From a virus, in IMG/VR virus record IMGVR_UViG_3300044452_000161: a stretch of 64,000 nucleotides of DNA; one strand, given 5' to 3'. Both the position numbers and the translations under genes were made by a program. The notes beneath the pieces are model-generated. The model worked only from the letters and a program-made list of their open reading frames with translations. It was not told the DNA's origin and did no database searches. How positions within the stretch are numbered: the first letter of the stretch is position 1; every line of letters starts with the position of its first letter. Of this stretch, positions 3,270-62,100 are shown piece by piece.

Positions 3270-3437
3270 TCAGTCCAACATCATTTGCGCGGTGATCATG
3301 ACGGCTTCCTCACGGGTGAACCCGGCGTACTCAAACTCTTTCACCGTTTTGAAATAAAGTTCCGCGATCTCTTTCAGGAGATCACTTTCAGAGACTGCAG
3401 CGATCTCTTCCCGCATCTGCGTAATTTGGTTCAGCAT
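3270..3437 (-). CDS. hypothetical protein
   Basis: GGAGGG RBS before ATG 3437; 55 aa. Confidence 0.65.
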   Translation of the reverse strand: MLNQITQMREEIAAVSESDLLKEIAELYFKTVKEFEYAGFTREEAVMITAQMMLD

Positions 3438-3689
3438 ATCTGTGGCACCCTCCATGAGGTTCGAATCGATGACACAGATATGTCAGAATTAATGACGATA
3501 GGCAAGAAGAAATGACGCCAGACACCGGGCGTTAGGTGGTTACGTTTGTAACTGCTTGTGTGTTTTGTGATCACAAATCTATCGAGAGCGCGCGCAGTTG
3601 GAGAGCGGTAAGATAGTGGATCAGGAGGGGAGGCAAAAATGGGGGAGGAGAGTAGGCTTGTATTAGATCGCCTCTAGGGTGTGCTAAAA

Positions 3690-6754: not shown

Positions 6755-7284
6755 AGAACCCAAAACATGAGGAGTACGCACTTCTGCTGGCCCAAGGGCT
6801 GACGCAGAAGAAAGCTTACGTGCAAGCAGGGTATTCAGACAATCCGCAAGCTGCGTCCAAGCTAGCCCAAGCGCCTAAATTCAAGAAGCGTGTTAAAGAG
6901 CTAAAGCAAGAAATAGCTCAGCAAATTCAAACAGCTATGGCGGAGCCATCTGTTGAAAATTGGGAGAGCCTGTCTGAGATGGGCCTGACCATGGAATGGG
7001 TCGCCCGACAGTATCAAGAAGTGTACAAGCAATCTCTCGACGCTGGAGCCTTTGCTCCTGCCAATACTGCTTTGCAGAATATCCAAAAGCTCATTGAAAT
7101 GGAGAACGACGCTAAGGGGGCTGAGGACACCTCGAAAGACGCATTGATCCCTGTTTCCGCTGTGACTGAGATGCTGACAGATATGCGTGGCGTGTTTGAG
7201 GCAAAGGCTAACGCAGAAGCGTCTATCGAAGTCGGTGAGCAACTTCTCGAAGACATGAAGGACATTACCCCCGATGCTGGATAA
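6742..7284 (+). CDS. terS: terminase small subunit
   Basis: LENPKHEEYALLLAQGLTQKKAYVQAGYS HTH motif; directly upstream of terL. Confidence 0.75.
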   Translation: MARLENPKHEEYALLLAQGLTQKKAYVQAGYSDNPQAASKLAQAPKFKKRVKELKQEIAQQIQTAMAEPSVENWESLSEMGLTMEWVARQYQEVYKQSLDAGAFAPANTALQNIQKLIEMENDAKGAEDTSKDALIPVSAVTEMLTDMRGVFEAKANAEASIEVGEQLLEDMKDITPDAG

Positions 7285-8956
7285 TGGGGGTGTTCTCATA
7301 ACTCAGGATGAGCGGGCACAGTATCGGAAGCTGCTGTCAGAGCTAGAGTTCTACATTGAAAAGATCGATGACCACATCCTGGGTAAGGCTGTGCTTCCCT
7401 CAGAGGTTTTGGCGAGTTTTGAGTCCAGACTTGGCACGTCTGATCCAGCCGCAGCTTTACGTGCGTTTCAATCCATGCGGACGGCTTACGATGAAGAATA
7501 CGATGAAAAGCTACGCTACGCGGCGCAGTTTCGTTTCTCTCCGTTCTGCGAGTACATGCGGCGCGAAGAAGTCCCAGCACAGCACCACGAATTTCTGATC
7601 GATCACCTTGAAGAAATTCATGAGTACGCCGCCACACGGGGCAAAAACGGAATCGAAAGACTGGCCATATCACTTCCGCCAGGATCGGCGAAGACGTCTT
7701 ACAGTTCCCACCGTTTTCCTGCTTGGCATTTAGGCCGTCGCCCCAATGATCGGTGGCTTCAGGGGGCACACACCCAAACATTCGCCAAAGACCGACTAGG
7801 CAAGGTTGTTCGCAACCTGGTCCAAGAGAAACGTTATCTGGATGTGTTCTCTGAGATGTCGCTGTCGATTGGTAGTTCTGCAGCGGATTATTTCGAATTC
7901 ACTGCGGGACACGGGTACTACAAAGCCGTGGGTGTAGGTGTGGGTATCTCTGGATACCGTTCCGATATCAGCGGGATCGACGATCCAATTGCGTCTCGCG
8001 AAGATGCTGAAAGCCCTACAGTAAGAAGAAAATTGAAAGACTGGTACGAGGATGACTTTGGGACGCGACCCATGCCAGGATCGCCTTTGTTCATCGTCGC
8101 AACTCGCTGGCATGAAGATGATTTGATTGGTGCTCAGCTAACCAAAGAGAAAGAGGGTAAGGGCGATAAGTTTGTTGTTGTTAATATCCCTGCGCTCGCT
8201 AACGCGGATGATCCGCTCGGGCGCACTGAGGGAGAAGGTCTCTGGCCTGAAGTCTTCGGGACTGAATTCTACCTAAACAAAAAGCGGTCAATGACCGGAC
8301 GCTCTTGGAACAGCCTTTACCAGGGCAATCCAGTTGACGAAGAGGGAGGCGTCCTAAAGCGGGAAGACGTTCGACGATACCAAAACATGCCTGCCGATGT
8401 CATTGAAAATGGCGAGGTGGTCAAGAAGATCGTCAAGAAGATCAGTTTGTCCGTTGACTGTGCTGAGAAAGCTACCCAGCGATCAGACTACACAGCTTGT
8501 ACAGTTTGGATCGAGACCACCGATAAGAAGCACTATCTGGTGCACGCAGACCGCACGAAGAAAGAGTTCGTCGAAATGGTCGAATGGATAGAGACCATCG
8601 CAAGAACTTGGCAGGTCAATCAGATACTTGTGGAAGACCGAGGGGCAGGTACTCAGTACATTCAGGTGAGAGAAAAAGCACCAGGACCCGCACCGGTTAT
8701 CTCTATTGCTACCCAACAGAAGTCCAAAGAGTTCCGGTTTGATGGTGTCACGCCGATGTTCGCTGCTGGGGAAGTGTTTCTGCCGGATACTGGTACAGAT
8801 TGGATAGCCGATATCGAGGCAGAACTATTCGCATTCCCCAATGGACGGAATGATGACTACGTGGACAGTGTTTCCCAATATTTGGCAAAAGCGCGTGAAC
8901 AATCTGGAAACAGGCGCGGTGTACGTAAGATGCGTAGTTCTACGTACGCTCGTTAG
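7274..8956 (+). CDS. terL: terminase large subunit
   Basis: Walker A PPGSAKT, Walker B GIDDP, ATRWHEDD, C-terminal nuclease DDYVDS. Confidence 0.95.
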   Translation: MLDNGGVLITQDERAQYRKLLSELEFYIEKIDDHILGKAVLPSEVLASFESRLGTSDPAAALRAFQSMRTAYDEEYDEKLRYAAQFRFSPFCEYMRREEVPAQHHEFLIDHLEEIHEYAATRGKNGIERLAISLPPGSAKTSYSSHRFPAWHLGRRPNDRWLQGAHTQTFAKDRLGKVVRNLVQEKRYLDVFSEMSLSIGSSAADYFEFTAGHGYYKAVGVGVGISGYRSDISGIDDPIASREDAESPTVRRKLKDWYEDDFGTRPMPGSPLFIVATRWHEDDLIGAQLTKEKEGKGDKFVVVNIPALANADDPLGRTEGEGLWPEVFGTEFYLNKKRSMTGRSWNSLYQGNPVDEEGGVLKREDVRRYQNMPADVIENGEVVKKIVKKISLSVDCAEKATQRSDYTACTVWIETTDKKHYLVHADRTKKEFVEMVEWIETIARTWQVNQILVEDRGAGTQYIQVREKAPGPAPVISIATQQKSKEFRFDGVTPMFAAGEVFLPDTGTDWIADIEAELFAFPNGRNDDYVDSVSQYLAKAREQSGNRRGVRKMRSSTYAR

Positions 8957-9069
8957 TATTACTTTTGTTTGGGTCCTTCCGCATTGGAAGCTTCGATACT
9001 ATGACCGGAAACAAAGCCAAGAAAACCAAAATCAGAACGAAAAATTCAATCATACTCTTACGCCTTTCT

Positions 9070-9303
9070 TTACGACGACAATCCCGACAGGACTGCTATC
9101 TCTACACGGTCGAGTAAGTTCGCAGGATAACGGGCTTGTTCAAGTTCAAACCATGAAACCTGTTTTCTAATGTGATTGCCACCAGTAGACGCTGAAAGCA
9201 CAAGTCCTGAACTTCCTACATACCATTCAGCAAACACACCGTAGTTTTCTTCCCAGTTTGACACGCGTTCTGCAGACGCTTTGAGGATTGCAATATTTGG
9301 CAC
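9070..9303 (-). CDS. hypothetical protein
   Basis: 77 aa, GTG start with GGAGG RBS. Confidence 0.65.
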   Translation of the reverse strand: MPNIAILKASAERVSNWEENYGVFAEWYVGSSGLVLSASTGGNHIRKQVSWFELEQARYPANLLDRVEIAVLSGLSS

Positions 9304-9317
9304 GATAATAACCCTCC

Positions 9318-9509
9318 CTACCGCACTGCGTTCAGGGCGGCATTGATGCGCGTTATTTGTTCAATGTCGCAGCTACCTTCGCCAAGTATCCTGCTCAACT
9401 GACCATGCATACTATCCGACGTTTCTGTATAGCAGAAGTACTTCAGGAGTCGGGCTAACGCGTCCTCTTCAAGAACTGTCATTTCAAGCGTAATCCGTTT
9501 GTCTGCCAT
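9318..9509 (-). CDS. hypothetical protein
   Basis: 63 aa in leftward run. Confidence 0.7.
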   Translation of the reverse strand: MADKRITLEMTVLEEDALARLLKYFCYTETSDSMHGQLSRILGEGSCDIEQITRINAALNAVR

Positions 9510-9511
9510 AG

Positions 9512-9886
9512 CTAAGCCCCTTTTCGTTCGTACCCAGTATGACGCCCAACAGGGGCCATCGTCTGAGTTTTCATGTCGTTGAAAAACTCTTCGTTGAAGC
9601 GTTTTATTGTGTATGCGTGCCTACCTGCAAAATAGACGGCAGCGGCAGCGCCTTGCATCACCACTACAACGTCGCCTGTAGTCATACTTGCGCCGCCAAT
9701 CCCGCCGAAGCCTAAGGCTGTTGACCCCCATGTTTGCGGGAAAAGGTGAACGTCTATTTCGCCTTCATGTGGTCGGCGTTCGCTTTTCGATCCGTCTCGT
9801 CGCTCGAACTCGATGTCCGGCAAATCGCGATCAATCGCCCTTGTAACTGACATCGCCAATGAAGTGATTGGGTCTCCTGCACGCAT
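9512..9886 (-). CDS. conserved-type phage hypothetical protein
   Basis: 124 aa with FPQTWGSTALGFGG motif. Confidence 0.75.
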   Translation of the reverse strand: MRAGDPITSLAMSVTRAIDRDLPDIEFERRDGSKSERRPHEGEIDVHLFPQTWGSTALGFGGIGGASMTTGDVVVVMQGAAAAVYFAGRHAYTIKRFNEEFFNDMKTQTMAPVGRHTGYERKGA

Positions 9887-9899
9887 GATTTAATACACC

Positions 9900-10133
9900 C
9901 TATGAAGATAGTTCTTGCGCTTTGAATTCTGCGGTGATGGGCTGCATGTCTAGCCCAAGGTATCTCACCTTGATCATTGGCTTATGTCCCGCAGCCCGGT
10001 TGCAGTTCGGATCAGTGTAAACAACGTGCATCGGCACATCGGGACGCGATTTCAAATACACCACATCCCCCACTTCGGCTTTTTTGGCGATGTGGCGCTT
10101 TTCGTAGCATTCCACTTTGAACATGTGCGGCAT
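9900..10133 (-). CDS. hypothetical protein
   Basis: 77 aa. Confidence 0.65.
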   Translation of the reverse strand: MPHMFKVECYEKRHIAKKAEVGDVVYLKSRPDVPMHVVYTDPNCNRAAGHKPMIKVRYLGLDMQPITAEFKAQELSS

Positions 10134-10145
10134 GTCATTGGTCCT

Positions 10146-10355
10146 TTATGCAGACAGGTGTTCGATTACGCGATGCGGACCCCAAGCACAGTTGGGATGT
10201 GGATCGCCGCTCTGCTTCATTACCCGCACAACGCGCTTCCCTTTTTTCTCGGCCAGCATCATGTCGCCGTTGATGTTGTAGTAGATGCAGGTTGTGTCGA
10301 ACTGTTCGCCTGTTTTCACATCCTCAACTCGATAGTCTTTGAAACGCTCAATCAT
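10146..10355 (-). CDS. hypothetical protein
   Basis: start moved to MIERF ATG at 10355. Confidence 0.6.
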   Translation of the reverse strand: MIERFKDYRVEDVKTGEQFDTTCIYYNINGDMMLAEKKGKRVVRVMKQSGDPHPNCAWGPHRVIEHLSA

Positions 10356-10368
10356 TCTTTTTGGGGTA

Positions 10369-10521
10369 TCACTCTGTCGTCTCATAGAATCCGGGCTCGA
10401 CAAACCCCTGCGTGGCTTCATCGTAGGTAAAGCCTGCTGCTTCTAAGGCCGCGATAACCTTATTGATTGTATCCTCGTCGGCCTCAAATCGAGCTTCGTT
10501 GATGTAGATGATGTGTTTCAT
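10369..10521 (-). CDS. 50 aa hypothetical protein (not in ORF track)
   Basis: MKHIIYINEARFEADEDTINKVIAALEAAGFTYDEATQGFVEPGFYETTE; GGAG RBS; first gene of leftward run. Confidence 0.7.
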   Translation of the reverse strand: MKHIIYINEARFEADEDTINKVIAALEAAGFTYDEATQGFVEPGFYETTE

Positions 10522-11232
10522 AGGGCGGCTCCTGTAACGGTATGACATTTAAAATGACATGATTCGACTTGGGGGGCAACAAAAAATAACAATTCAACAA
10601 GTAACGAGATGCACTAGTCTGACATTGAATCAGTGGCGGAGGGAAAAAATTCCAAAAATGCCTCTCTGGAAGAAAAATTTACCGAATCACTTGATCGCCT
10701 GACGCAAAGATTCGCGCCGATTCCCCGGTTAGTGCCCGATGTGCCTTTTTGTACAACACGTGCTTTTCGATGTGCCAATTTGTCATTTGAAAAGGGGGCT
10801 ACACACCACCGCTCGTAAGTTATTGATTTTAAACGCGATAAAAAGTCACATGAACGAAAATATGTGACAAAAGTACGAATTTAGCACATTTAAGAGTGGC
10901 GTATGATCTCCCGGAAGCCGGGAATCGGTGATTCTCCAGGCTATGCAGGGAGCGAGTGGTTGACCCTTAGTGATTCGTTTGGGTTGAAAAGTTCTTCAAA
11001 ATGGGGAATATTTCCCGCTGACGCGGGCAGGGACCCTCTGAAATTGATGATGGGGCGGGAACCTGTTAAAACGATGTCAGGGACCCTAACGAATTGAAGA
11101 CTGGGTACCCCTCGTTTTAGGCAACAAGCCGCAGACGAAGCGGCATACGTGCCGTGTTTGTTGACAAGCCAATTCAGGGCCTATCAATAGTCGGTTCGAC
11201 CGCGCCTGAGAGGTGCGGAATGGAGGAATGCT

Positions 11233-11589
11233 TTGGCAAACGTCAAAGATGAATGGTGGCACACGTCAGAAGACGGACGCCGGATAGGCTGGATATGGCC
11301 TGAAGACTTTGAGGCGATCCTTGAGGCCCGATACGGGCATAGAAAGTGGATCAAAGGCTTCTGTGAGGACTTTGGGTATTCAAGGTCGACCGTTGATCGA
11401 TGGAAGCTAGGCCAGGAGCCAATCCCCAAACATGTTGCCCAAATCCTGGAAATGATAAGTGCGATGACCTCACGTAAGATTCCACTTGAAAAGATACAGG
11501 CAGACTGGCTCCCGCTCTCGCCGAATACTTCCAAAGGACGGAAGCCTACTTCAGAAGATCGTATCCGTGATATGGTCAACAAGCTCTGA
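11233..11589 (+). CDS. HTH-containing putative transcription regulator
   Basis: FCEDFGYSRSTVDRWKLG resembles a Cro/XRE helix-turn-helix; GGAGG RBS, TTG start. Confidence 0.6.
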   Translation: MANVKDEWWHTSEDGRRIGWIWPEDFEAILEARYGHRKWIKGFCEDFGYSRSTVDRWKLGQEPIPKHVAQILEMISAMTSRKIPLEKIQADWLPLSPNTSKGRKPTSEDRIRDMVNKL

Positions 11590-11747
11590 CAGTGTGGGAG
11601 CGGTGATCGAATGTATCATGACGTGATACACCCGCTGACGCGGGCCATTGCCAATTCACCATGTTACAAAGATACCAGGGTTGTCATACGACAACTTAGC
11701 AATGTTCTGTGTGCAGACGTGGTGTCTCAGCCTGATTGACGGTCGAG

Positions 11748-11841
11748 TTTTGACGAGTCGCTGTTTTTACGTTTTCTCGTTTTGACGATCTCACGATTTT
11801 TGACGATGGATCAGTTTTGACGAGTCGTCATTTTTTGACAC
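11748..11841 (+). repeat. TTTTGACGA short direct repeats
   Basis: copies at 11748, 11780, 11798, 11815 and variant TTTTGACAC at 11833. Confidence 0.8.
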
Positions 11842-12208
11842 GAGCAGGCTTTGATTTTCGGAAATCAAACAAAAAATAGAGTTTTTGTTGGGCAGGTTCC
11901 GCTGTGTCCGCGAGGGTCGGTCCAAGGGTCTGATGGAGACTTGCCGTTCACCTAGCCGCCCGCGTATTCCGTTTGGCTATACTGTAGACTAGTGTGATTC
12001 TATGTGACAATGCAAGCAAAAATGACAACGCATTTTCACACGATCCGAAACGATTCACGTTTTCGCCTTACCTCACAATCCGCCGAAAGGCGTTTATATC
12101 TTTCGGCGCGTTCCTCTTTTGTGGCGTAGATGGAATCGCCTGAATAGTCTTTCAGGATCAAGTCTAAGTCTGTTTCAGATATGGGCGGGTGTAGATCAAC
12201 AACGTTTG

Positions 12209-12379
12209 TCATTGATCCACCTCACAAGACAAAACACCGTTGATTTGATCCGCAAAGGCTTGCCAATCTAGGACGCGCGCGGCGCAATCTTGCGGCGTCA
12301 AATCGTGGTCCAGAACCGCGACCGCGTTGCCGTGTGGTATTGCAGCGGTGAGGAAAAGGGCAAGGGTTTGGGCTAACAT
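12209..12379 (-). CDS. small secreted or membrane hypothetical protein
   Basis: start moved to MLAQT ATG 12379 with GGAG RBS; hydrophobic N-terminus. Confidence 0.65.
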   Translation of the reverse strand: MLAQTLALFLTAAIPHGNAVAVLDHDLTPQDCAARVLDWQAFADQINGVLSCEVDQ

Positions 12380-12485
12380 GTGGTGACTCCTTTCAAGGGA
12401 AAAAGGCGCGCTGACGCGCGCCCTATCGGTTAGAAATGCCCCAGCACGACAAGCATGCATGCGGCGAAAAAGAGAATAATCACAT

Positions 12486-13235
12486 TCAAGCGGCAACCCT
12501 TTCGGCAAAGGCTTTAACTTTGGCCTTGCTACCATGTGCGGGGATAAAGACGCTTGCCTTGTTTGGGCTAGACGTTCCACCGCACGCGAGACATTGCGCG
12601 CAGTTTACTTTTTTTCCGGCCTCTTCACTAGCAGGGCAAAGGAATTCGCCGCGCGCGTGTTTTTCCGCGAACGTTCCGACTCGGAATGTGCGGTAACCCA
12701 TTGCTTGCGCCGCTAGCGCCTCACAAGCGGAGTCGGCGCTTGCCATGCAATACTTTGCAAAGCCAGGGTCACAATTCAACCATTGGTGAGTGTAACCCGT
12801 GCCCTTGTCAGCGTGAACCAAAGCACATTCCCAAACCCAAAGCGGGACGGCGGCAGGGTCACCATATGCGCCCAAACGGACATTACGTTGCGCGAGGTGA
12901 AGCTTTCCTAAATCCGCAGCAAGTGGATACTTACCCGCGCGGTAGGTTTTCCAGACGCTAAGCGGCGCTTGAAACACTGTCACATAGCAAGAACGCGAAA
13001 CGTTCTTACCGTCTACAATTTCACCACGATGCGGACACTTGCCACAGATCGATTCATCATCGCCAGTGTGAATGGCTTCATGAGGTGCAATGTCTTGACG
13101 CAAAATCCACGTTTGAATCAGATTGCCGGTTTTTGCGTTTTGGGAAGAACGACCTTTGATACCGGTTGCAATGACCACGATAGGCTTACCGTCTATCTCG
13201 CTAGGGCCTTCCCACAAAATTACTCCGTTTGCCAT
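12486..13235 (-). CDS. Cys-rich putative metal/Fe-S-binding phage protein
   Basis: CGKCPHR..CYV, VRLGAYGDP, YTHQW, CPAS...NCAQCLACGG motifs; 249 aa. Confidence 0.8.
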   Translation of the reverse strand: MANGVILWEGPSEIDGKPIVVIATGIKGRSSQNAKTGNLIQTWILRQDIAPHEAIHTGDDESICGKCPHRGEIVDGKNVSRSCYVTVFQAPLSVWKTYRAGKYPLAADLGKLHLAQRNVRLGAYGDPAAVPLWVWECALVHADKGTGYTHQWLNCDPGFAKYCMASADSACEALAAQAMGYRTFRVGTFAEKHARGEFLCPASEEAGKKVNCAQCLACGGTSSPNKASVFIPAHGSKAKVKAFAERVAA

Positions 13236-13238
13236 GTG

Positions 13239-13481
13239 TTAACCCTCCACACTTGTGGTTGAGAGTTTTTCAATGACCCAATCTACTTCGATTCCGTATT
13301 CGTTTATCAGATTGACGAGGTCTTCTTCGTTTTTTGGTTCGTCACAGTCATAGGCACCCGCGACCCAATCCATATCGTCAAGCAAGGCTTTTTCAGCGCT
13401 TTGTCTGTTTTGGAATATGTGACCGGGTCCAATCGTTCCGATTACGTAGTCAGACCTTACTATTACAATGTATCCAGCCAT
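13239..13481 (-). CDS. hypothetical protein
   Basis: 80 aa, GAGG RBS, own promoter upstream. Confidence 0.75.
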   Translation of the reverse strand: MAGYIVIVRSDYVIGTIGPGHIFQNRQSAEKALLDDMDWVAGAYDCDEPKNEEDLVNLINEYGIEVDWVIEKLSTTSVEG

Positions 13482-13501
13482 GTCAGTTTTCCTCTATATA
13501 G

Positions 13502-13612
13502 CGTTTCGGTATTGTCAGAATAAGTGACACATGGGTGAGTCGCAAGAACAAAATGTCACATTTTGTGATTGACGAATGTTAGCGAATCGGACAAATTCAA
13601 CTTACCGAAACG
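13502..13612. promoter_or_regulatory. divergent sigma70-type promoter pair with TGTCA-N7-TGACA box (13513-13529), GANTC sites and ACCGAAACG leader motifs
   Basis: minus strand TTGCGA-17-TATTCT; plus strand TTGACG(13569)-17-CAAATT. Confidence 0.65.
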
Positions 13613-13633
13613 CCAAATGAAAGGTTTACTGAC

Positions 13634-13759
13634 ATGGCACCACATTCACATATGCATGAACATTTCCCTCGCGGGCGGCATGGCGGAAAAGACGCTCGCC
13701 GCGCCGCACGACGCCTTAAACACGCTCAGCGCGCCCTTTTCGCGGGTACATACTCATGA
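13634..13759 (+). CDS. 41 aa basic hypothetical protein (not in ORF track)
   Basis: MAPHSHMHEHFPRGRHGGKDARRAARRLKHAQRALFAGTYS; AAAGG RBS; ATGA overlap with next gene. Confidence 0.65.
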   Translation: MAPHSHMHEHFPRGRHGGKDARRAARRLKHAQRALFAGTYS

Positions 13760-14061
13760 GCACATATCCCCGTCCAAAAACGCTTGATCCTAGCCTAGTG
13801 GCGATTTTGTTGGACGCTGTAGGCACGCAATTTTTGACTGTGGAATATGTCAAAAAAGACGGGAACATAGGCCGCACGAATGGCTTGCTACGCGCCACGT
13901 CGCGCCTTGTGGGCAATGCACGGGGGCAGACACAAGGAAACGCAATGAAGGATCGCGGGCAAGTGTGGATTGCCAAAAGTCGCGGGGGAAGCGCGAGCTT
14001 CTTTCTTGATCGTGTGACCTCAATTCAGTGTCGCGGGGCAGGAATAGACGCACGCGCCTAA
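13756..14061 (+). CDS. hypothetical protein (FLTVEYVKKDG motif, SH3/WYL-like fold possible)
   Basis: 101 aa; motif typical of small early phage proteins. Confidence 0.75.
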   Translation: MSTYPRPKTLDPSLVAILLDAVGTQFLTVEYVKKDGNIGRTNGLLRATSRLVGNARGQTQGNAMKDRGQVWIAKSRGGSASFFLDRVTSIQCRGAGIDARA

Positions 14062-14082
14062 CGGCTTCAAAAAGAATGACAT

Positions 14083-14105
14083 GGCCCGCTAACGCGGGCC
14101 TTTTC
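14083..14105 (+). terminator. intrinsic terminator
   Basis: GGCCCGC-TAAC-GCGGGCC followed by TTTT. Confidence 0.75.
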
Positions 14106-14318
14106 ACTTACACGCGCCAGAAAATATGGCCAGATTCCGCACTCCTAGCCCGTCCCCTACTTGCCTTGTCGGCTTTCCTGACCTCACATACACAGTAATG
14201 CGATTCTAGCTGTCTGATCAATCACAATAAGACAGATTTTGTGACAAATTGTACTTGCGGCAGGCAAGCGAATCGGACACAGTGAGGATACCGAAACGCA
14301 AATCATGGGAATTGACCA

Positions 14319-14570
14319 ATGAGTAACGAACAGAAAACACGCCTTGTAAACGTAACCGCTACGATGATTTCTGACCTTGCCGCCACCGTGCGTGTGCCCA
14401 GTGATGTCACGGATGATCAAGTGTTAGAATGGTATCGGGACAACGGCGCGTCCGGAGAATTCATTGAGGACGGATGGGGCGCTTGGGAATGGGGAAGTGC
14501 AAGCTCTGTAGAGACCAATGAGGTAGAGGATGGTGCGGCCATCCACGATCTCACGGGGGAATTTGCGTGA
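14319..14570 (+). CDS. acidic hypothetical protein
   Basis: 83 aa downstream of GANTC-type promoter. Confidence 0.75.
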   Translation: MSNEQKTRLVNVTATMISDLAATVRVPSDVTDDQVLEWYRDNGASGEFIEDGWGAWEWGSASSVETNEVEDGAAIHDLTGEFA

Positions 14571-15139
14571 TGTTGGAAGAGGTGAAATTCAGTGTAACGT
14601 TCACTGCGTCGTGTGATGTGGAATACGCACCGACAGAACAACGGCAGCGATTCAGTAATTACATCGAAAGGGCTATATCTGAAGGGTGGACTGAATTTGG
14701 TATTGATTTGATAGATGCCACGGTGGGGCGAACTGTACCAGAGTCAGAAATCTACGGCACAAATCTGCAACCTGATCCGTTAGAGCTATTGGATCACAGC
14801 ACCGTAGCGGAGAACGCTATGTGTTTGTGGGAAGCCTATTTGGACGCAGGACCTGTAGAGACGCCAGACACCACCGAAGGATGGCTCAAAAGCCTTCGAT
14901 TGTGGCACGAAAGTGTGGGGTTTGCCGAGGCGCGTACCCATTTGTCGCGGTTTGCTGTGTCTGTAGAGAAAGCATTCGAAGAGGCGACAGCGGCAGGCTA
15001 CGGTGATCCGTTTGATTGGGAATTCTGCCCTTGGTTTTTGTCTGCCTGTATTGATTGGACAGCAAGCACTCCGACGCTGAACCCGGATTATTTGAAGCTA
15101 TCAAAAGCAATTGGAAAGGCGTTTGGCAATGCGGCCTGA
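14567..15139 (+). CDS. hypothetical protein
   Basis: 190 aa, GTGA overlap with previous gene. Confidence 0.75.
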   Translation: MMLEEVKFSVTFTASCDVEYAPTEQRQRFSNYIERAISEGWTEFGIDLIDATVGRTVPESEIYGTNLQPDPLELLDHSTVAENAMCLWEAYLDAGPVETPDTTEGWLKSLRLWHESVGFAEARTHLSRFAVSVEKAFEEATAAGYGDPFDWEFCPWFLSACIDWTASTPTLNPDYLKLSKAIGKAFGNAA

Positions 15140-15368
15140 CTTTGAAATCCTGAACTATTGGACCATGTGGCTTGTATATCCCAAGACAGAAGCAGCAGCA
15201 GAACATGCAAAGATAGTGTTCCCTGACAGGGAGTGGCTTGGGCCAATGGTGGCGTGTGAGGCGTGTCAACTAGAGAGTACCGCACAACGGCTGCGAGCAG
15301 ATGGTTTCATTGTATCTGTTGATGGTGCAACGGGGGCGATACCGGACGTGTTACCTATGTTTGCCTAA
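15129..15368 (+). CDS. hypothetical protein
   Basis: start moved to MRPDF ATG 15129. Confidence 0.65.
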   Translation: MRPDFEILNYWTMWLVYPKTEAAAEHAKIVFPDREWLGPMVACEACQLESTAQRLRADGFIVSVDGATGAIPDVLPMFA

Positions 15369-15445
15369 GAGATGTCATAAATACTTGCCTAATGGGCGCG
15401 AATCTTGTAAGAATAACTTACCGAAACGCTCATTAGGACAAGTCT

Positions 15446-15691
15446 ATGGCATACGCAAATATCAATCTAACAATTGAAACAAAGGCCGCTTCGTTTGATA
15501 TTGAGGTGGTTGCAGAGGGTGAAATCGTGACCGGGGGAAGCAATCGCTACGGTAGCGATGAGCCAGCTTACTGTGAGGTGCAGGATATGAGGGTTTATCG
15601 CAAAGACTTCTCACCTCTTCCGCCAATGCTGCGCGATCACATTCTTGATCGATACGATGATATCCTCACGGATCATATCGTCCACGCTTAA
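15446..15691 (+). CDS. hypothetical protein
   Basis: 81 aa, AGGA RBS, own promoter. Confidence 0.75.
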   Translation: MAYANINLTIETKAASFDIEVVAEGEIVTGGSNRYGSDEPAYCEVQDMRVYRKDFSPLPPMLRDHILDRYDDILTDHIVHA

Positions 15692-16492
15692 CTAAGCAAA
15701 AACAATCTAAGTGTTTAGGGCCTTCCCTGCGTGACAGCAGCGGAAGGCTTTGCTGTGTCTTGTATCAAGTAAAGCGTAGAAGAAATGTGTTGACAAACCT
15801 GGAATCAAAGAGGGACCCAACGGGGGGTATGGGGGTGGGGTGATTCGCGCGCGTAGGTGCTACACGAATTTATGTGGCGTACTTGATGGAATCCGGGGGA
15901 CCCTGGAGAAACTGGCACCCCCCTTTGTTCATGAAATATGCCGTTAAAAAAAAAATTTCGGAGTTATCAAAATGGTGTTGCTGAAATGTCACAATTTATG
16001 ACAAGGCGAGATGATCAGCGGCAATGTTGACGTTTTGACCCGTTGTTCAGTCAGAAATATTGACATTTTAGGGGGGTTGGACTAAGTCAGGTTCACCGAA
16101 ACACCTTTTCCCCCCTCATTTTCACGATTTTTAGGGCCTCGAGGTAACCAATCCGGCGAATTTTGTCCGCTGTAAAAACCTCTAGAAGGCCATTTGACAG
16201 AAATACTGTCATTTTTGCGTTGACGGGTAAGTAAGAATCACTTAAACACATCTTCACGGACGCCAATCGCGGTGTTCGGTGATAGGTACGCCTGGCGGTG
16301 ACAGCAAATCTGGCAGGTGGTGAGTAATAGGATTGTTTCACTAACCATGAGGCAGTCTCGCCAGTTTGGCGAACGTTTTTTGACATAGATGTGTGGTGCA
16401 TCGTTTATATTCTGAAAACACAACTGGAACGAGTTGTGTACACTTGTAGGACGACACGTTTCGACGCCGAGAGCCGATAATCGAGTGAATTT

Positions 16493-16569
16493 GGGGCGTT
16501 GGTCTAGCGGTCGAGGATACTGCACTTTCAATGCGGTGGTCACGGGTTCGAATCCCGTACGCCCTACCA
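16493..16569 (+). tRNA. tRNA-Glu(TTC)
   Basis: cloverleaf, loop CT-TTC-AA, encoded CCA. Confidence 0.92.
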
Positions 16570-16574
16570 TTATT

Positions 16575-16677
16575 CAGATACTTTGCAGGTGCACTCCTCG
16601 ATGTTTTGTTCAGTTTCCATCGAGTTTGAGCGGGCGTTTCGGTCATTCTCCGCTCGAGTGCATCTTTGAAGTGTCTG
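16575..16677 (+). ncRNA. three-way-junction structured RNA candidate
   Basis: long terminal stem enclosing CTCGATG/CATCGAG and GAGCGG/CCGCTC helices; strand assumed from flanking tRNAs. Confidence 0.5.
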
Positions 16678-16684
16678 TTAATTT

Positions 16685-16760
16685 GGTGTCATAGCTCAGT
16701 TGGTAGAGCACCCGGCTCATATCTGGGAGCGCGGTGGTTCGAACCCACCTGACACCACCA
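16685..16760 (+). tRNA. tRNA-Met(CAT), elongator-like
   Basis: cloverleaf, loop CT-CAT-AT, CCA. Confidence 0.88.
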
Positions 16761-16862
16761 AACACAAGTTCCTGGTACAGAGGTCCTCAAAACTCGGTTT
16801 TCGAAGACCGACAACCCTCTGTTAAAACGCTCGGGTCGAAGGCGGGTAGTGCCCATAACGAA

Positions 16863-17135
16863 TACGACGTAGCTCAATCGAAAGCCAAACGTCAGTATGA
16901 AAGGCCTAGAAAACGGCGAGATAAGGCTCCCAGTAGGCGTGATCGTAACAAATGCAAGGTGTAAGAAACGTTGAGCGGGTTAAACGCCCGACAGACGATC
17001 CCGAACGAACAGGGAGATAAGGCGCTCGGAGTACGAAAGTTCGAGTACTACTGATTGTAGCGAGTCGCGGGTAGAGCACCAGCATTCACATTGCATCAGG
17101 GCTGGAGATGCGGGGTTCGAGGCCCGCCGTCGTTG
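16863..17135 (+). ncRNA. tRNA-like RNA with about 190-nt D-loop insertion and 17-nt anticodon loop
   Basis: ACGACG/CGTCGT acceptor, GCTC/GAGC D stem, CCAGC/GCTGG stem, TTCGA T loop. Confidence 0.6.
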
Positions 17136-17193
17136 CCGATTAGGTTTGCAGTCTGCGCAGACGATTATAGCCGGGTTAACACGGCGAAAGATA

Positions 17194-17260
17194 TGACGTT
17201 CTGGCTTCGTCGGCAGAGGAAGCTGGAGTGGAATCTAAGGTTCGAGTCCTTAGGGCGTCA
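17194..17260 (+). ncRNA. tRNA-like element lacking one arm
   Basis: TGACGTT/GGCGTCA acceptor, CTAAGG-TTCGAGT-CCTTAG T arm, single internal hairpin. Confidence 0.5.
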
Positions 17261-17273
17261 GGCAAACCTATAT

Positions 17274-17349
17274 CAGGGTGTAGCTCAGTTGGTAGAGTGC
17301 CGCACTTGGAATGCGGAGGTCGTCGGATCGTGACCGACCACCCTGACCA
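17274..17349 (+). tRNA. tRNA-Pro(TGG)
   Basis: cloverleaf, loop CT-TGG-AA, CCA. Confidence 0.92.
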
Positions 17350-17706
17350 AACTCAAACGATGTCGTCCGAAACCGTTCCTAGAACCGTTCGGAGGGCTAT
17401 CGACTGCGCGGTGGCATCCCTGCAGGTAGTACCTGTGAACGTCGCAGTATAAAATGGGTCGCCACACTAACAGAAAACTCGCTTACTCCGGAGTATTACC
17501 TCCCGAGGCGCATAGGTAAGACGCAGTATAGCGGGGGTTTGGTTGGAGTTTGTAGCTGGGGAGCAGACTAGCCTCAGCATCCAAGTTTCGGAGAGACTGC
17601 GCCGAGAGGGGCCGCGCCATAGTTTACTCCAAGTAGTTCACATTCAGCGCCGAAGTATGTCCCCCTGTGTGATTGAAAAGGCTTCTGATCAAACCATTCA
17701 CCCTTT

Positions 17707-17782
17707 TGCGGGATGGAGAAGTAGTCATCTCGCTTGGTTCATGTCCAAGAGATCGTCGGTGCAAATCCGGCTCCCGCAACCA
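17707..17782 (+). tRNA. tRNA-Met(CAT), initiator-like body
   Basis: body resembles bacterial fMet tRNA but T1-A72 is paired and the anticodon stem lacks three G-C pairs. Confidence 0.8.
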
Positions 17783-17930
17783 TTCTGAAATAGCCTGCCC
17801 TCTCCTTCACACCCTCCCGGCAGGTGAACCTCCGGTGCCCAAACCGCAGTCCTCGCGGGCGTCCGAAAGGGCAGACGTTGGTGTCACGTTTTACCTGGCA
17901 CCAAGAGTAGGCTCGGAGGAAAAAATCTAT

Positions 17931-18033
17931 ACTGGCGTAGCTCAGAGGTAGAGCGCTGAGACGTAAACACTCTCGGAGACGCAGAGACACGGGCAGCACA
18001 CCGTGTTGGGTTCAAATCCCGCCGCCAGTTCCA
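17931..18033 (+). ncRNA. aberrant tRNA-like RNA (9-nt anticodon loop, extra arm)
   Basis: perfect acceptor ACTGGCG/CGCCAGT plus TCCA, canonical D arm, TTCAAAT T loop. Confidence 0.65.
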
Positions 18034-59100: not shown

Positions 59101-62100
59101 GAAGACAGCTACGTATTTACGCAGGGTTACGACTTCGACATTCGCCCCGGTGTGGGCGATGCTACCATTGACGGTGTGCGTATCCTTACGACAGATGACG
59201 GGGCGACCTTTATCCCGAACAGTGAAAAGGGATCAGCCAACGGCGTGGCTACCTTGGACGGCAGCGGCAAGGTTACGCTGTCCCAGATGCCTGACGGCTT
59301 CGACAACTACGAAGAACACGCAGACTTCGCCAGCTTTCCCGGCACAGGCGTTGCCGCAACCATCTATGTGGCGTTGGATACGAACTATCTATATCGCTGG
59401 TCTGGGTCGCAGTACAACCAAGTTGGCGGCGGAGGCAGCGGTGTTAATGCGGTCGAACTGACACACACCAACGGCGTGATTGCGTTGGATGTATCAGCGG
59501 GTACACACTTCCGGTTTGACACAGATATTTACACCGGGGCCGATCCGACAGTTCCTATTCTTGAGTTTGACACAAGTTTCTCGTCAGGAACCAACAATCT
59601 ACCAGCGGGTCTGCAAGAAAACGACGATGTGTTTTTGTTGATCGGCAACGACAACGCGACCACGATCACTATTGACGAAGCTGGTTGGAACTTTGTGTGT
59701 CAGACACGGCGTAACAACCGATACATGCACGTCTACCACAAGCGCATGGGTCCCGAACCAGACGCCACATTCAGCACTAACTCTTCAACAGAAGACGGCT
59801 TCATTGCAGTCTATCGTGGTCTGAAGGTGAACCCAGCTACACTGACCGAACCTAATCCGGCGGTGGATTGGCCAGCGCCCGATGTGACGCTGGGTGCGGG
59901 CGGTCATGGAAGCGCTTTTACATTCGACACAACCACCACCAAGGGTGCGTCGATCCGGCGTAACTCACTATTCCTTTTTGAAGACGTTGTGTTCGATGCG
60001 ACACCGAAAGGTATCATCATCCAGACCGGTCCCGGCGATACCAACGATTACCTGTTCTGGATGGGTTGCCGTGACGACAACAGCAACATGGAAATCGGCC
60101 TGCAATACGAAAACAGTGCCATCACAAACGGCAATGGTATCGCAGAAGCTATCAACGACACAGTATTCGCGGGCAAGACGGTTGATATTTATGTCGCGGT
60201 GCAGGCACACCCCCATTGTGAATTGCGGGTGGCGATGTTCGAAGCAGGCGTGCTGATCTTCAACGAAGTGTATCAGGCCGACAACACTGCCGATGCAGCT
60301 TACAGCACCGGATGGTCGGAGAACCTTACGGGTGCAAATGTCGGGCAAGGATCGGCAGGATATCAACCTGTGCAGGTGCTTCAAAGTTCTGGGTTGATCG
60401 ACAACCAGCATAGCGGCATCACGTTGGGCGGGACTAAATTCTGGAACCAGCAAGTGCCGTGGCCAGAATTTTATGGTGTCCTAAACACGCCTGTCGCCAA
60501 CTGGAAGCATGAAGAAAACTATGGCACTGGTACTGTGTACACACCGTTTTCCACAGGTATCGCAGAACCTGTGTCTGTCGATCCTGCTTACCTGATCTTT
60601 AGTCAGCTTGGTCCTTCATCTGATGGGGTGGTTCCCGACTTCATGACACCGGATGACGATGGTGACTGGGACACTGAAAATTTTGTCGCAGGTGAAAGCA
60701 CCAACGCTGTTATCGCGTTCCACTCAGATGGTCGGATTACGGATGGCGAGTACCCTACATATTCCGTCCGGTACAACGCCCCGTACATTGGCGGTCATTA
60801 TGGCACAATCGGTCTGGAACTGTTGACCCTACAGCCATCCGAAACCGGCTATCGAAACTTCACAATCAACTTGTCAAACTTGCCTGACATCACTGAACCG
60901 GCAACGCTGGAATTGAATGTGCGCGATGCAGGTGGCGGGTTCGTAATCAATGGTCTGACCGGGTGGATCGGACAGGTGCCGCAGTGGAACAAGGTCGGCA
61001 AGTATTCGATCTTGCTGCTGCCGTCTGATGATGGCGTCTATGCGGTACATCTGGGCAGCGGCGAAGAAAAGACAGAACGGTTCCAAGCACAGACGCTGAC
61101 CCACGCAGCAGGTGCGGTGCAGGTCGATCTTGGTGCAGCCAACATGTTCACGTTCGCAGCGGACACCTACAACGCAGGCACACCGGAATTCATCGGGGCG
61201 AACCTTGCGTCGAACTTCAATCATGGTGATGCGACCCCTATTGGTGGTGCGCGACCGGGCGACATCTTGGTGCACGTGCACAGCAGCCACTTCGGCAGCG
61301 CCCCGGCACCGGGTGCCGATCCTAACGTGGACGATGGCCACCCCCAGAACTATCCATCGTGGGTGCGACTTGACGACGGTTCCGAGGGCACCGGCATCTA
61401 TGTATCTGCACACTTGATCACTGCCGACACCATTACATCGGGTGGCCAAGATTTGCGCGGCTGGACAGGCAACTATCCTGAACAGTGCACCATGTTGTTC
61501 CGTGGTGCGGCATGGCCGGTTGAAAGTTTTGCGTATGAGAACGCGGCCCCTGAAAACCCTATGCAGAGTGAAGCCGTCACCAAGGTAACAGAAGGCGCAC
61601 GGGCCTACCAATACTTCCACATGGGCGCACAATCGAACGACCGCTGGCAGAACGACAGTGGCATGGACGACATCGCGTTTGCTAACTACGATCAGGTCTA
61701 TCTGGAAAAGCGGGATAAAGGTGGCTTTGGTTCATCGCGCGATGTCTTTTCAGCCTTGTTCGAAGAACGTGCAGACAGCCCCACACGTGACACAGGAACG
61801 ACGCCATCGGTATCGGAAACGACTGCCGATAATATGTCGGATGCGACCCTATCCCACCGTGTGTCGTTCGCCCTTGCCCCCGGTGCATCTAGCGGTGTTC
61901 TGACCTACAATATCACGTTCGCCAACCGGCCCACAGGTGAGTACGCCCACGGCTACCTGTTCCTTGAGTTGAAAGATGCTCTACAGAACTTTGACTTTGG
62001 TGGTTCCGAAGAATGGCTAAACGATAACGAGCCAACGTTCACGATTCCCGGCCTGTACACAATTGAGTATTGGGTAAGCGACACCCAAACCCGATTGCTG

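Follow-up and report, generated by a model that had tools for sequence, protein, structure and literature searches.

GcrA and CcrM make up the textbook epigenetic transcription module of the Alphaproteobacteria. The present analysis concerns a class of promoters with a GANTC box in the window, i.e., the whole 64,000-nt stretch of the virus record IMGVR_UViG_3300044452_000161, in which an earlier note, made from the letters alone, had proposed that such promoters are wired to GcrA and to methylation. GcrA is carried on sigma70 and activates promoters in which a methylated GANTC matches TGATTCG/YGAKTCK, and its sites are found narrowly around −20 or at +2 to +30, with almost none at −10 (Haakonsen et al., PMC4647560). 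The upstream boxes are centered at −20±1 and −30±2, mostly with one box per promoter, and these positions are explained by a monomeric DNA-binding domain that lies opposite RNA polymerase (RNAP); on the non-template strand, the PcsM-derived scaffold used for cryo-electron microscopy (cryo-EM) reads TTGACA-CCCGGGC-GAATC-CCTGC-TATAAT (Wu et al., PMC9976885). The GcrA of Agrobacterium depends strictly on methylation for binding (PMC13687562), and PacBio sequencing found GANTC methylated in Sulfitobacter, a roseobacter (PMC9025767). Promoters of alphaproteobacterial phages that carry CtrA boxes, described under the term 'lytic deferment', likewise wire phage transcription to a host cell-cycle regulator, but through another regulator and another site (TTAA-N7-TTAA) than those considered here (PMC9437464); the CtrA box has no match in the window.

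By their conservation, the sites in the window belong to a genuine promoter class that is shared with related phages and stands in front of many small, non-structural genes. Every TTG located 35 (±2) nt 5′ of the A of ACCGAAAC was collected from the window and five complete relatives (MAL1, MD18, RpAliso, DSS3P8, and RcXuper), which yielded a set of 128 promoters. GANTC starts at −22 to −19 from that A in 51 of the 128 (class A), all of them GAATC, and at −32 to −29 in 60 (class B), where 58 have GAATC. Both positions are occupied in none of the promoters and neither position in 17. The class A and class B positions are 10–11 bp apart and mutually exclusive, and the box has the same orientation in all boxed promoters. 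Each GAATC position carries ~2 bits of information, compared to ~0–0.4 bits in the adjoining spacer, which argues that the box is selected and not merely inherited. Genome-wide, GANTC is found at 0.58–0.81 of expectation, yet it is kept in the promoters. When TTG-to-GAATC distances were counted without the ACCGAAAC anchor, a peak appeared at offset 15 in the window and the five relatives (7, 26, 27, 11, 16, and 16 copies, respectively, over a background of ~1–6), and a second peak at offset 4 appeared in the relatives only. No such peak from promoters was found for GATTC or GASTC in these genomes; the GAGTC and GACTC sequences at offset 15 in RcXuper and RpAliso were rejected as chance matches in coding sequences.

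In the window, all six TTGNNN-N9-GAATC sites listed in the earlier note are present (13569, 14255, 15385, and 16220 on the plus strand; 12015 and 14221 on the minus strand), as are its seven further YGAKTCG-type sites (TGATTCG at 10561, 10972, and 15842; CGAATCA at 10684; CGAGTCG at 11755 and 11822; TGAGTCG at 13537). TTG-N12-GAATC occurs 7 times, compared to 2.82 expected, and only one of 100 dinucleotide shuffles reaches that number. Six of the seven copies fall within 11996–16239 (4.3 kb), with a stray copy at 62062 on the minus strand. GANTC is otherwise scarce in the window (145 sites vs. 288 expected), and the region 10300–16300, which is 9.4% of the window, holds 33 of the 145 GANTC sites and 14 of the 30 YGAKTCK sites. 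We noticed two additional members, at 13545 and 10579 on the minus strand, that were not on the earlier list (Table 1). With a matrix derived from the relatives alone, the three full promoters of the window score 33–44, while the best shuffle scores 9.5.

Table 1. Promoters and promoter-like sites of the window (score, value with the matrix built from the relatives only).
Feature	Coordinates	Strand	−35 element and GANTC box	−10 element	Start box or unit	Genes served	Score
Class-A promoter	13569–13613	+	TTGACG (13569–13574); GCGAATCG (GAATC 13584–13588)	CAAATT, weak (13592–13597)	ACCGAAACGC (13604–13613)	ORFs 13634–13759, 13756–14061	37
Class-A promoter	14255–14299	+	TTGCGG; GCGAATCG (GAATC 14270–14274)	CACAGT (14278–14283)	ACCGAAACGC (14290–14299)	ORFs 14319–14570, 14567–15139, 15111–15368	44
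Class-A promoter	15385–15429	+	TTGCCT; GCGAATCT (GAATC 15400–15404)	TAAGAA (15408–15413)	ACCGAAACGC (15420–15429)	ORF 15446–15691	33
Promoter	16220–16260	+	TTGACG-N9-GAATC (AGAATCA)		no clean ACCGAAAC box	tRNA operon (first tRNA 16493)	
Promoter-like site	11975–12015	−	TTGCAT-N9-GAATC (AGAATCA)	ambiguous (CTAGTC or TACAGT)			
Promoter and unit	14075–14221	−	TTGATC-N9-GAATC (AGAATCG), 14221→14202		GAGGTCAGGAA unit from ~14186		
Class-B promoter	13501–13545	−	TTGCGACTC (GACTC 13541→13537; heptamer TGAGTCG)		ACCGAAACGC (13510→13501)	ORFs 13239–13481, 12486–13235	
Variant-spacing member	10541–10579	−	TTGCCC-N8-GAATC (TTG-N11-GAATC; heptamer TGATTCG); G 14 nt after first T	CATTTT	ACCGTTAC, variant start box	small ORF ending at 10369	
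Box-less member	16060–16104	+	TTGACA-N17-TAAGTC; no GANTC	TAAGTC	CACCGAAAC (16095–16102), at equal distance		

The core of these promoters is of the sigma70 type, with a near-invariant TTG at −35, a 17-bp spacer and a CAnAAn hexamer with a conserved A at −11. In the promoters at 13569, 14255, and 15385 (plus) and at 13545 (minus), the first T of TTG is exactly 35 nt 5′ of the A of ACCGAAACGC, and ACCGAAACGC itself is 20–30 nt 5′ of a ribosome-binding site and a start codon of an open reading frame (ORF). In the class-B promoter at 13545, the GANTC (GACTC) is 11 nt further upstream than in class A and overlaps the −35 element. The A of ACCGAAAC, ~20 nt after the G of GAATC, is the predicted +1. 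The earlier note had placed the start at about this distance, which agrees with the finding that the conserved blocks of two unrelated transcript types, the ACCGAAAC leaders and the GAGGTCAGGAA unit described below, begin 20–21 nt after that G; the start itself stands as a prediction. ACCGAAACGC at the predicted +1 is kept across the DSS3phi8 group, to which the relatives belong, and in Sphingobium phage Lacusarx. A further GANTC is found at −5 to −1 in 28 of the 128 promoters, often in the relatives, as GA(A/C)TC just 5′ of ACCGAAACGC. An E. coli-type promoter scan did not call the phage promoters, whose −10 hexamers are too weak, and this weakness fits a dependence on an activator. Upstream of the core, at −60 to −40, most promoters of the relatives have a GCTT(G/C)AAGC palindrome and an A/T-rich run just 5′ of the −35 element; the window has a TGTCA/TGACA half-site at that place.

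Comparison with the promoters that are activated by GcrA and CcrM in Caulobacter crescentus (i.e., PcsM, ctrA P1, and mipZ) revealed a close likeness: a single asymmetric GANTC in YGAKTCK context between −35 and −10, two alternative box positions that differ by one turn of the helix, a non-template strand that reads GCGAATC and a weak −10 element (PMC4647560, PMC5887438, PMC9976885). The phage boxes read GCGAATC(G/T) on the non-template strand, and both the strand and the GC flank are those of the cryo-EM scaffold. YGAKTCK is fitted by 82 of the 111 family boxes, all on the template strand, where ~1/8 would be expected on a given strand, and by five of the six window sites. The rule of one box per promoter also holds, given that none of the 128 promoters has both spacer boxes. 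Unlike the Caulobacter promoters, those of the phages come in arrays of up to ~30 per genome and have A almost always at the N of GANTC. They also add the start box ACCGAAACGC and, often, the further GANTC at −5 to −1, a position that has not been described for GcrA.

The class extends beyond the DSS3phi8 group. Erythrobacter phage L02 has 26 TTGACGAATCA promoters, most of which have another CGAATCA immediately 5′ of the predicted start, and TGATTCG, the GcrA optimum according to the crystal structure, is the commonest of its GANTC heptamers (78 of 422). Lacusarx has 12 TTGACGAATCA promoters, in which the CACCGAAAC start box is kept. Mesorhizobium phage Cp1R7A-A1 showed no TTG-to-GANTC offset peak, and a TTG-N13-GANTC peak in phiCbK was discarded, as it is made of tRNA T-arms.

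We hold with moderate confidence that these are sigma70-type promoters in which a GcrA-type DNA-binding domain docks on a 7–8 bp box, GCGAATC(G/T), and that an epigenetic reader of the host is probably put to use by these phages. The motif, its two fixed positions, its orientation and its conservation are seen in the sequences, whereas early timing, any role of N6-methyladenine (m6A), the start site and the identity of the reader (GcrA of the host or, in MD18, a phage protein with a GcrA domain) are inferences. The host RNAP holoenzyme would arrive with GcrA already bound to domain 2 of sigma70, and the tethered N-terminal domain of GcrA would bind the (methylated) GANTC box in the −35/−10 spacer on the helix face away from the polymerase. 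This binding would compensate for the poor −10 element (CAnAAn) and help open-complex formation, and transcription is predicted to begin at the A of ACCGAAACGC, ~20 nt past the G of GAATC. The wiring to GcrA and methylation that the earlier note proposed is supported in part, by the conservation of the class, by a box context and strand as published and a pair of predicted positions close to the published ones, by relatives whose hosts are Rhodobacterales, which encode GcrA, by the methylation of GANTC in roseobacters and by the GcrA domain of MD18.

MD18 is the only one of the five relatives with GcrA (PF07750). Its ORF of 124 amino acids (108218–108592 of the record) matches PDB 5yiu at E = 1.5e-16, and its first 45 residues are ~70% identical to the DNA-binding domain of Caulobacter GcrA, with R33 and N34 kept. 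The rest of the ORF is a module of ~70 amino acids, fused in frame, which in MAL1, DSS3P8, RpAliso, and RcXuper is a stand-alone ORF after a gene for a DnaQ-like exonuclease (48–88% identity); no sigma-interacting domain of GcrA was detectable in the fusion. GcrA DNA-binding domains 72–84% identical to that of MD18 were found in 516 contigs, and among the matches listed (80 of 516) nearly all were from Rhodobacterales. The phiCbK-like Caulobacter phages also carry a GcrA sequence (gp222; PMC3556154), but the match of the phiCbK protein spans almost all of the GcrA model (positions 2–150), whereas MD18 has the DNA-binding domain only, together with the phage-specific module of 70 amino acids. 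No promoter class has been linked to the phiCbK protein, and on this subject the phiCbK paper treats the GcrA gene only (PMC3556154).

Several observations weigh against a GcrA-based reading. GcrA was not found in the other four complete relatives, and a gene for a CcrM-family methylase (PF01555) was found in none of the relatives or outgroup phages. Thus, methylation of the phage DNA would depend on the host. The G of the class-A box is base 15 (sometimes 14) from the first T of TTG, compared to base 13 in the cryo-EM scaffold, which with the predicted +1 puts the box centers at −18/−19 and −28/−29, so that the class-A box is 1–2 bp off the published optimum and nearer to the −10 element. Twenty-five boxes read AGATTCG, which is outside YGAKTCK, and a scan of alphaproteobacterial phages with a GcrA matrix saw no positional asymmetry (Mascolo et al., PMC9437464). 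In two of five Rhodobacterales genomes, none of them that of an actual host, a count by hand of CTTG-N(0–20)-CGAATC, with a poor reversed-pattern control, had its only peak at gap 2, where the G comes 6 nt after the first T, and none at the offsets seen in the phages. The remaining adverse observations, taken up next, also speak for another kind of reader.

The GCGAATC box could be read by a phage-encoded factor, either a helix-turn-helix (HTH) protein of ~115 amino acids or the module of ~70 amino acids that is fused in MD18. The promoters would then be of the middle type and turned on by an activator from the phage, and it would be by coincidence or mimicry that the box overlaps GANTC. We consider this explanation unlikely, although it is the most probable of the alternatives. 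The conserved word is tighter than GANTC, as A fills the N in almost every box and the 5′ GC flank hardly varies. In the five Rhodobacterales genomes, which are not those of the actual hosts, TTG-N12-GAATC occurs 17–43 times per genome with no bias to GCGAATC and no density comparable to that in the phages, i.e., the geometry of the phage box is missing there. Box-bearing promoters are also used by genes outside the terminal small-gene cluster, and the HTH protein, a candidate phage-made reader, is kept in all five relatives. This protein has an HTH like that of sigma70 region 4, mostly below the Pfam cut-offs (e.g., DSS3P8 record 61704–61808, minus strand, outside the window), and is possibly a phage transcription regulator. 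It has, however, no specific likeness to GcrA, and a phage factor would need the asymmetric 7-bp specificity of GcrA, including the exact TGATTCG in L02, as well as the two spacer positions allowed to GcrA. In addition, the first arrays of small genes and the tRNA operon, which stand behind these promoters, need to be started by host factors only.

At the middle promoters of phage T4, a MotA box at −30 replaces the −35 element, and a phage-made activator works with sigma70 remodelled by AsiA. The promoters described here resemble them in a short box near −30, in the proposed activator attached to sigma70 and in its substitution for a weak core element. They differ in that the −35 element is kept and in that the likely reader would be a host cofactor that senses m6A.

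A further elaboration of the GcrA-based reading, in which methylation serves as a clock, is improbable when taken as a whole. As these phages lack a methylase of the CcrM type, good GcrA boxes would be offered only by the parental genome, which is injected in a fully methylated state, while newly replicated phage DNA would be un- or hemimethylated. The whole set of box-bearing promoters would be shut off as replication proceeds and box-less late promoters would take over, and with its GcrA-domain fusion MD18 would override the switch or compete with it.

Quite improbable, in our judgment, is that the sigma70 holoenzyme of the host touches GAATC directly as a spacer or extended −10 element, or that GAATC acts through DNA shape, with no cofactor and no role of methylation. 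The class-A box does abut a TG at −15/−14 in many relatives, and the −35 boxes are good, but in 60 promoters the box is 10–11 bp further upstream and overlaps the −35 element, where contact with sigma region 3 is impossible, and in the five host-type genomes the element does not show up at the phage offset. An alternative sigma factor, phage-encoded or of the extracytoplasmic function (ECF) type, that reads GAATC as −35 and CGAAAC as −10 is very unlikely: the class-A arrangement GAATC-N17-CGAA resembles the GGAAC-N16/17-CGTT promoters, but class B shifts the box by 10–11 bp while TTG and ACCGAAAC stay in place, the TTG at −35 hardly ever varies, the AAC core of ECF −35 elements is missing from the box, and no gene with sigma70 region 2 was found in the relatives.

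The terminase gene (7274–8956) and a gene for a protein of 249 amino acids (12486–13235, minus strand) of the window have their best matches, at 66–78% amino acid identity, in six siphophages of ~147–150 kb, i.e., DSS3_MAL1, Phaeobacter phage MD18, Ruegeria phages RpAliso, vB_RpoS-V10, and DSS3P8, and Rhodobacter phage RcXuper. The cultured relatives infect Rhodobacterales. By these matches, the window is a piece of a marine, DSS3phi8-type roseophage with a genome of ~150 kb. A megablast-level search of phage records found no match to the window, which together with the amino acid identities makes it a new member of the group, with a lower GC content (51%). Exact-word scans of contigs from viruses and metagenomes likewise brought up nothing. 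The promoter region at 10.4–16.3 kb consists of small ORFs between the terminase gene and the tRNA operon. Searches with PHROGs and Pfam found nothing informative in the ORFs downstream of the promoters, and the small ORFs of 10.4–16.3 kb are without a family. An Rfam scan of 9000–18000 found tRNAs only. No RNA data set was listed for a 4.4-kb stretch of the window. One metatranscriptome run, in which 5% of the words of that stretch occur, matched the window only through a 135-nt adapter-flanked fragment inside the ORF at 14567–15139 and a piece of tRNA, and is uninformative on starts or expression.

Other sequence features accompany the promoters. A 19-bp palindrome, ACAAAATGTCACATTTTGT, is located at 13548–13566, midway between the divergent promoters at 13545 (minus) and 13569 (plus), and a TGTCA-N7-TGACA palindrome at 13513–13529 covers the −10 element of the class-B promoter at 13545, like palindromes in the spacer of the class-B promoters of RpAliso. 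Both look like an operator layer over the box. At 3422–3470 on the minus strand there is a family-like promoter (class-B matrix score, 20.6) with a palindrome of the TGTCA type and a GATTC near the predicted start. Five TTTTGAC(G/A) repeats are found within ~100 bp at 11747–11845, a stretch poor in ORFs, two of them as TTGACGAGTCG with GANTC 5 nt after TTG; these repeats look like iterons or stacked −35 boxes.

Two features may concern RNAs. The conserved unit at 14075–14187 (minus strand), which has a GAATC-box promoter in front, consists of GAGGTCAGGAA(A/C)G, a hairpin of copy-specific sequence and AGTAGGGGACGGGTTAGGAGTGCGGAATC(C/T)G, and it ends at a two-way terminator hairpin (14083–14100). 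One copy is present in the window and 3–4 copies are present in each of MAL1, MD18, RpAliso, and DSS3P8, while none was found in RcXuper. The unit, which had no match in Rfam, is a candidate multi-copy small RNA of these phages. Inside the tRNA operon, a hairpin at 16628–16655 has GCGTTTCGGT in its plus-strand loop (16634–16643). This loop is complementary to the ACCGAAACGC leader and thus could belong to an anti-leader RNA.

In the literature, we found no description of phage promoters that are built around GcrA and CcrM, and the papers on DSS3phi8 and MD18 contain nothing on promoters or GcrA. The class is kept in phages that infect Ruegeria, Phaeobacter, Rhodobacter, Erythrobacter, and Sphingobium, and by the predicted +1 it follows a steric rule that was derived from cryo-EM, with class A 1–2 bp off. 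The promoter arrays represent a natural graded set of candidate GcrA promoters outside Caulobacter. As relatives have been cultured on tractable hosts (i.e., R. pomeroyi DSS-3, R. capsulatus, and P. inhibens), the possibility that a virus reads the methylation and cell-cycle state of its host via GcrA is directly testable.

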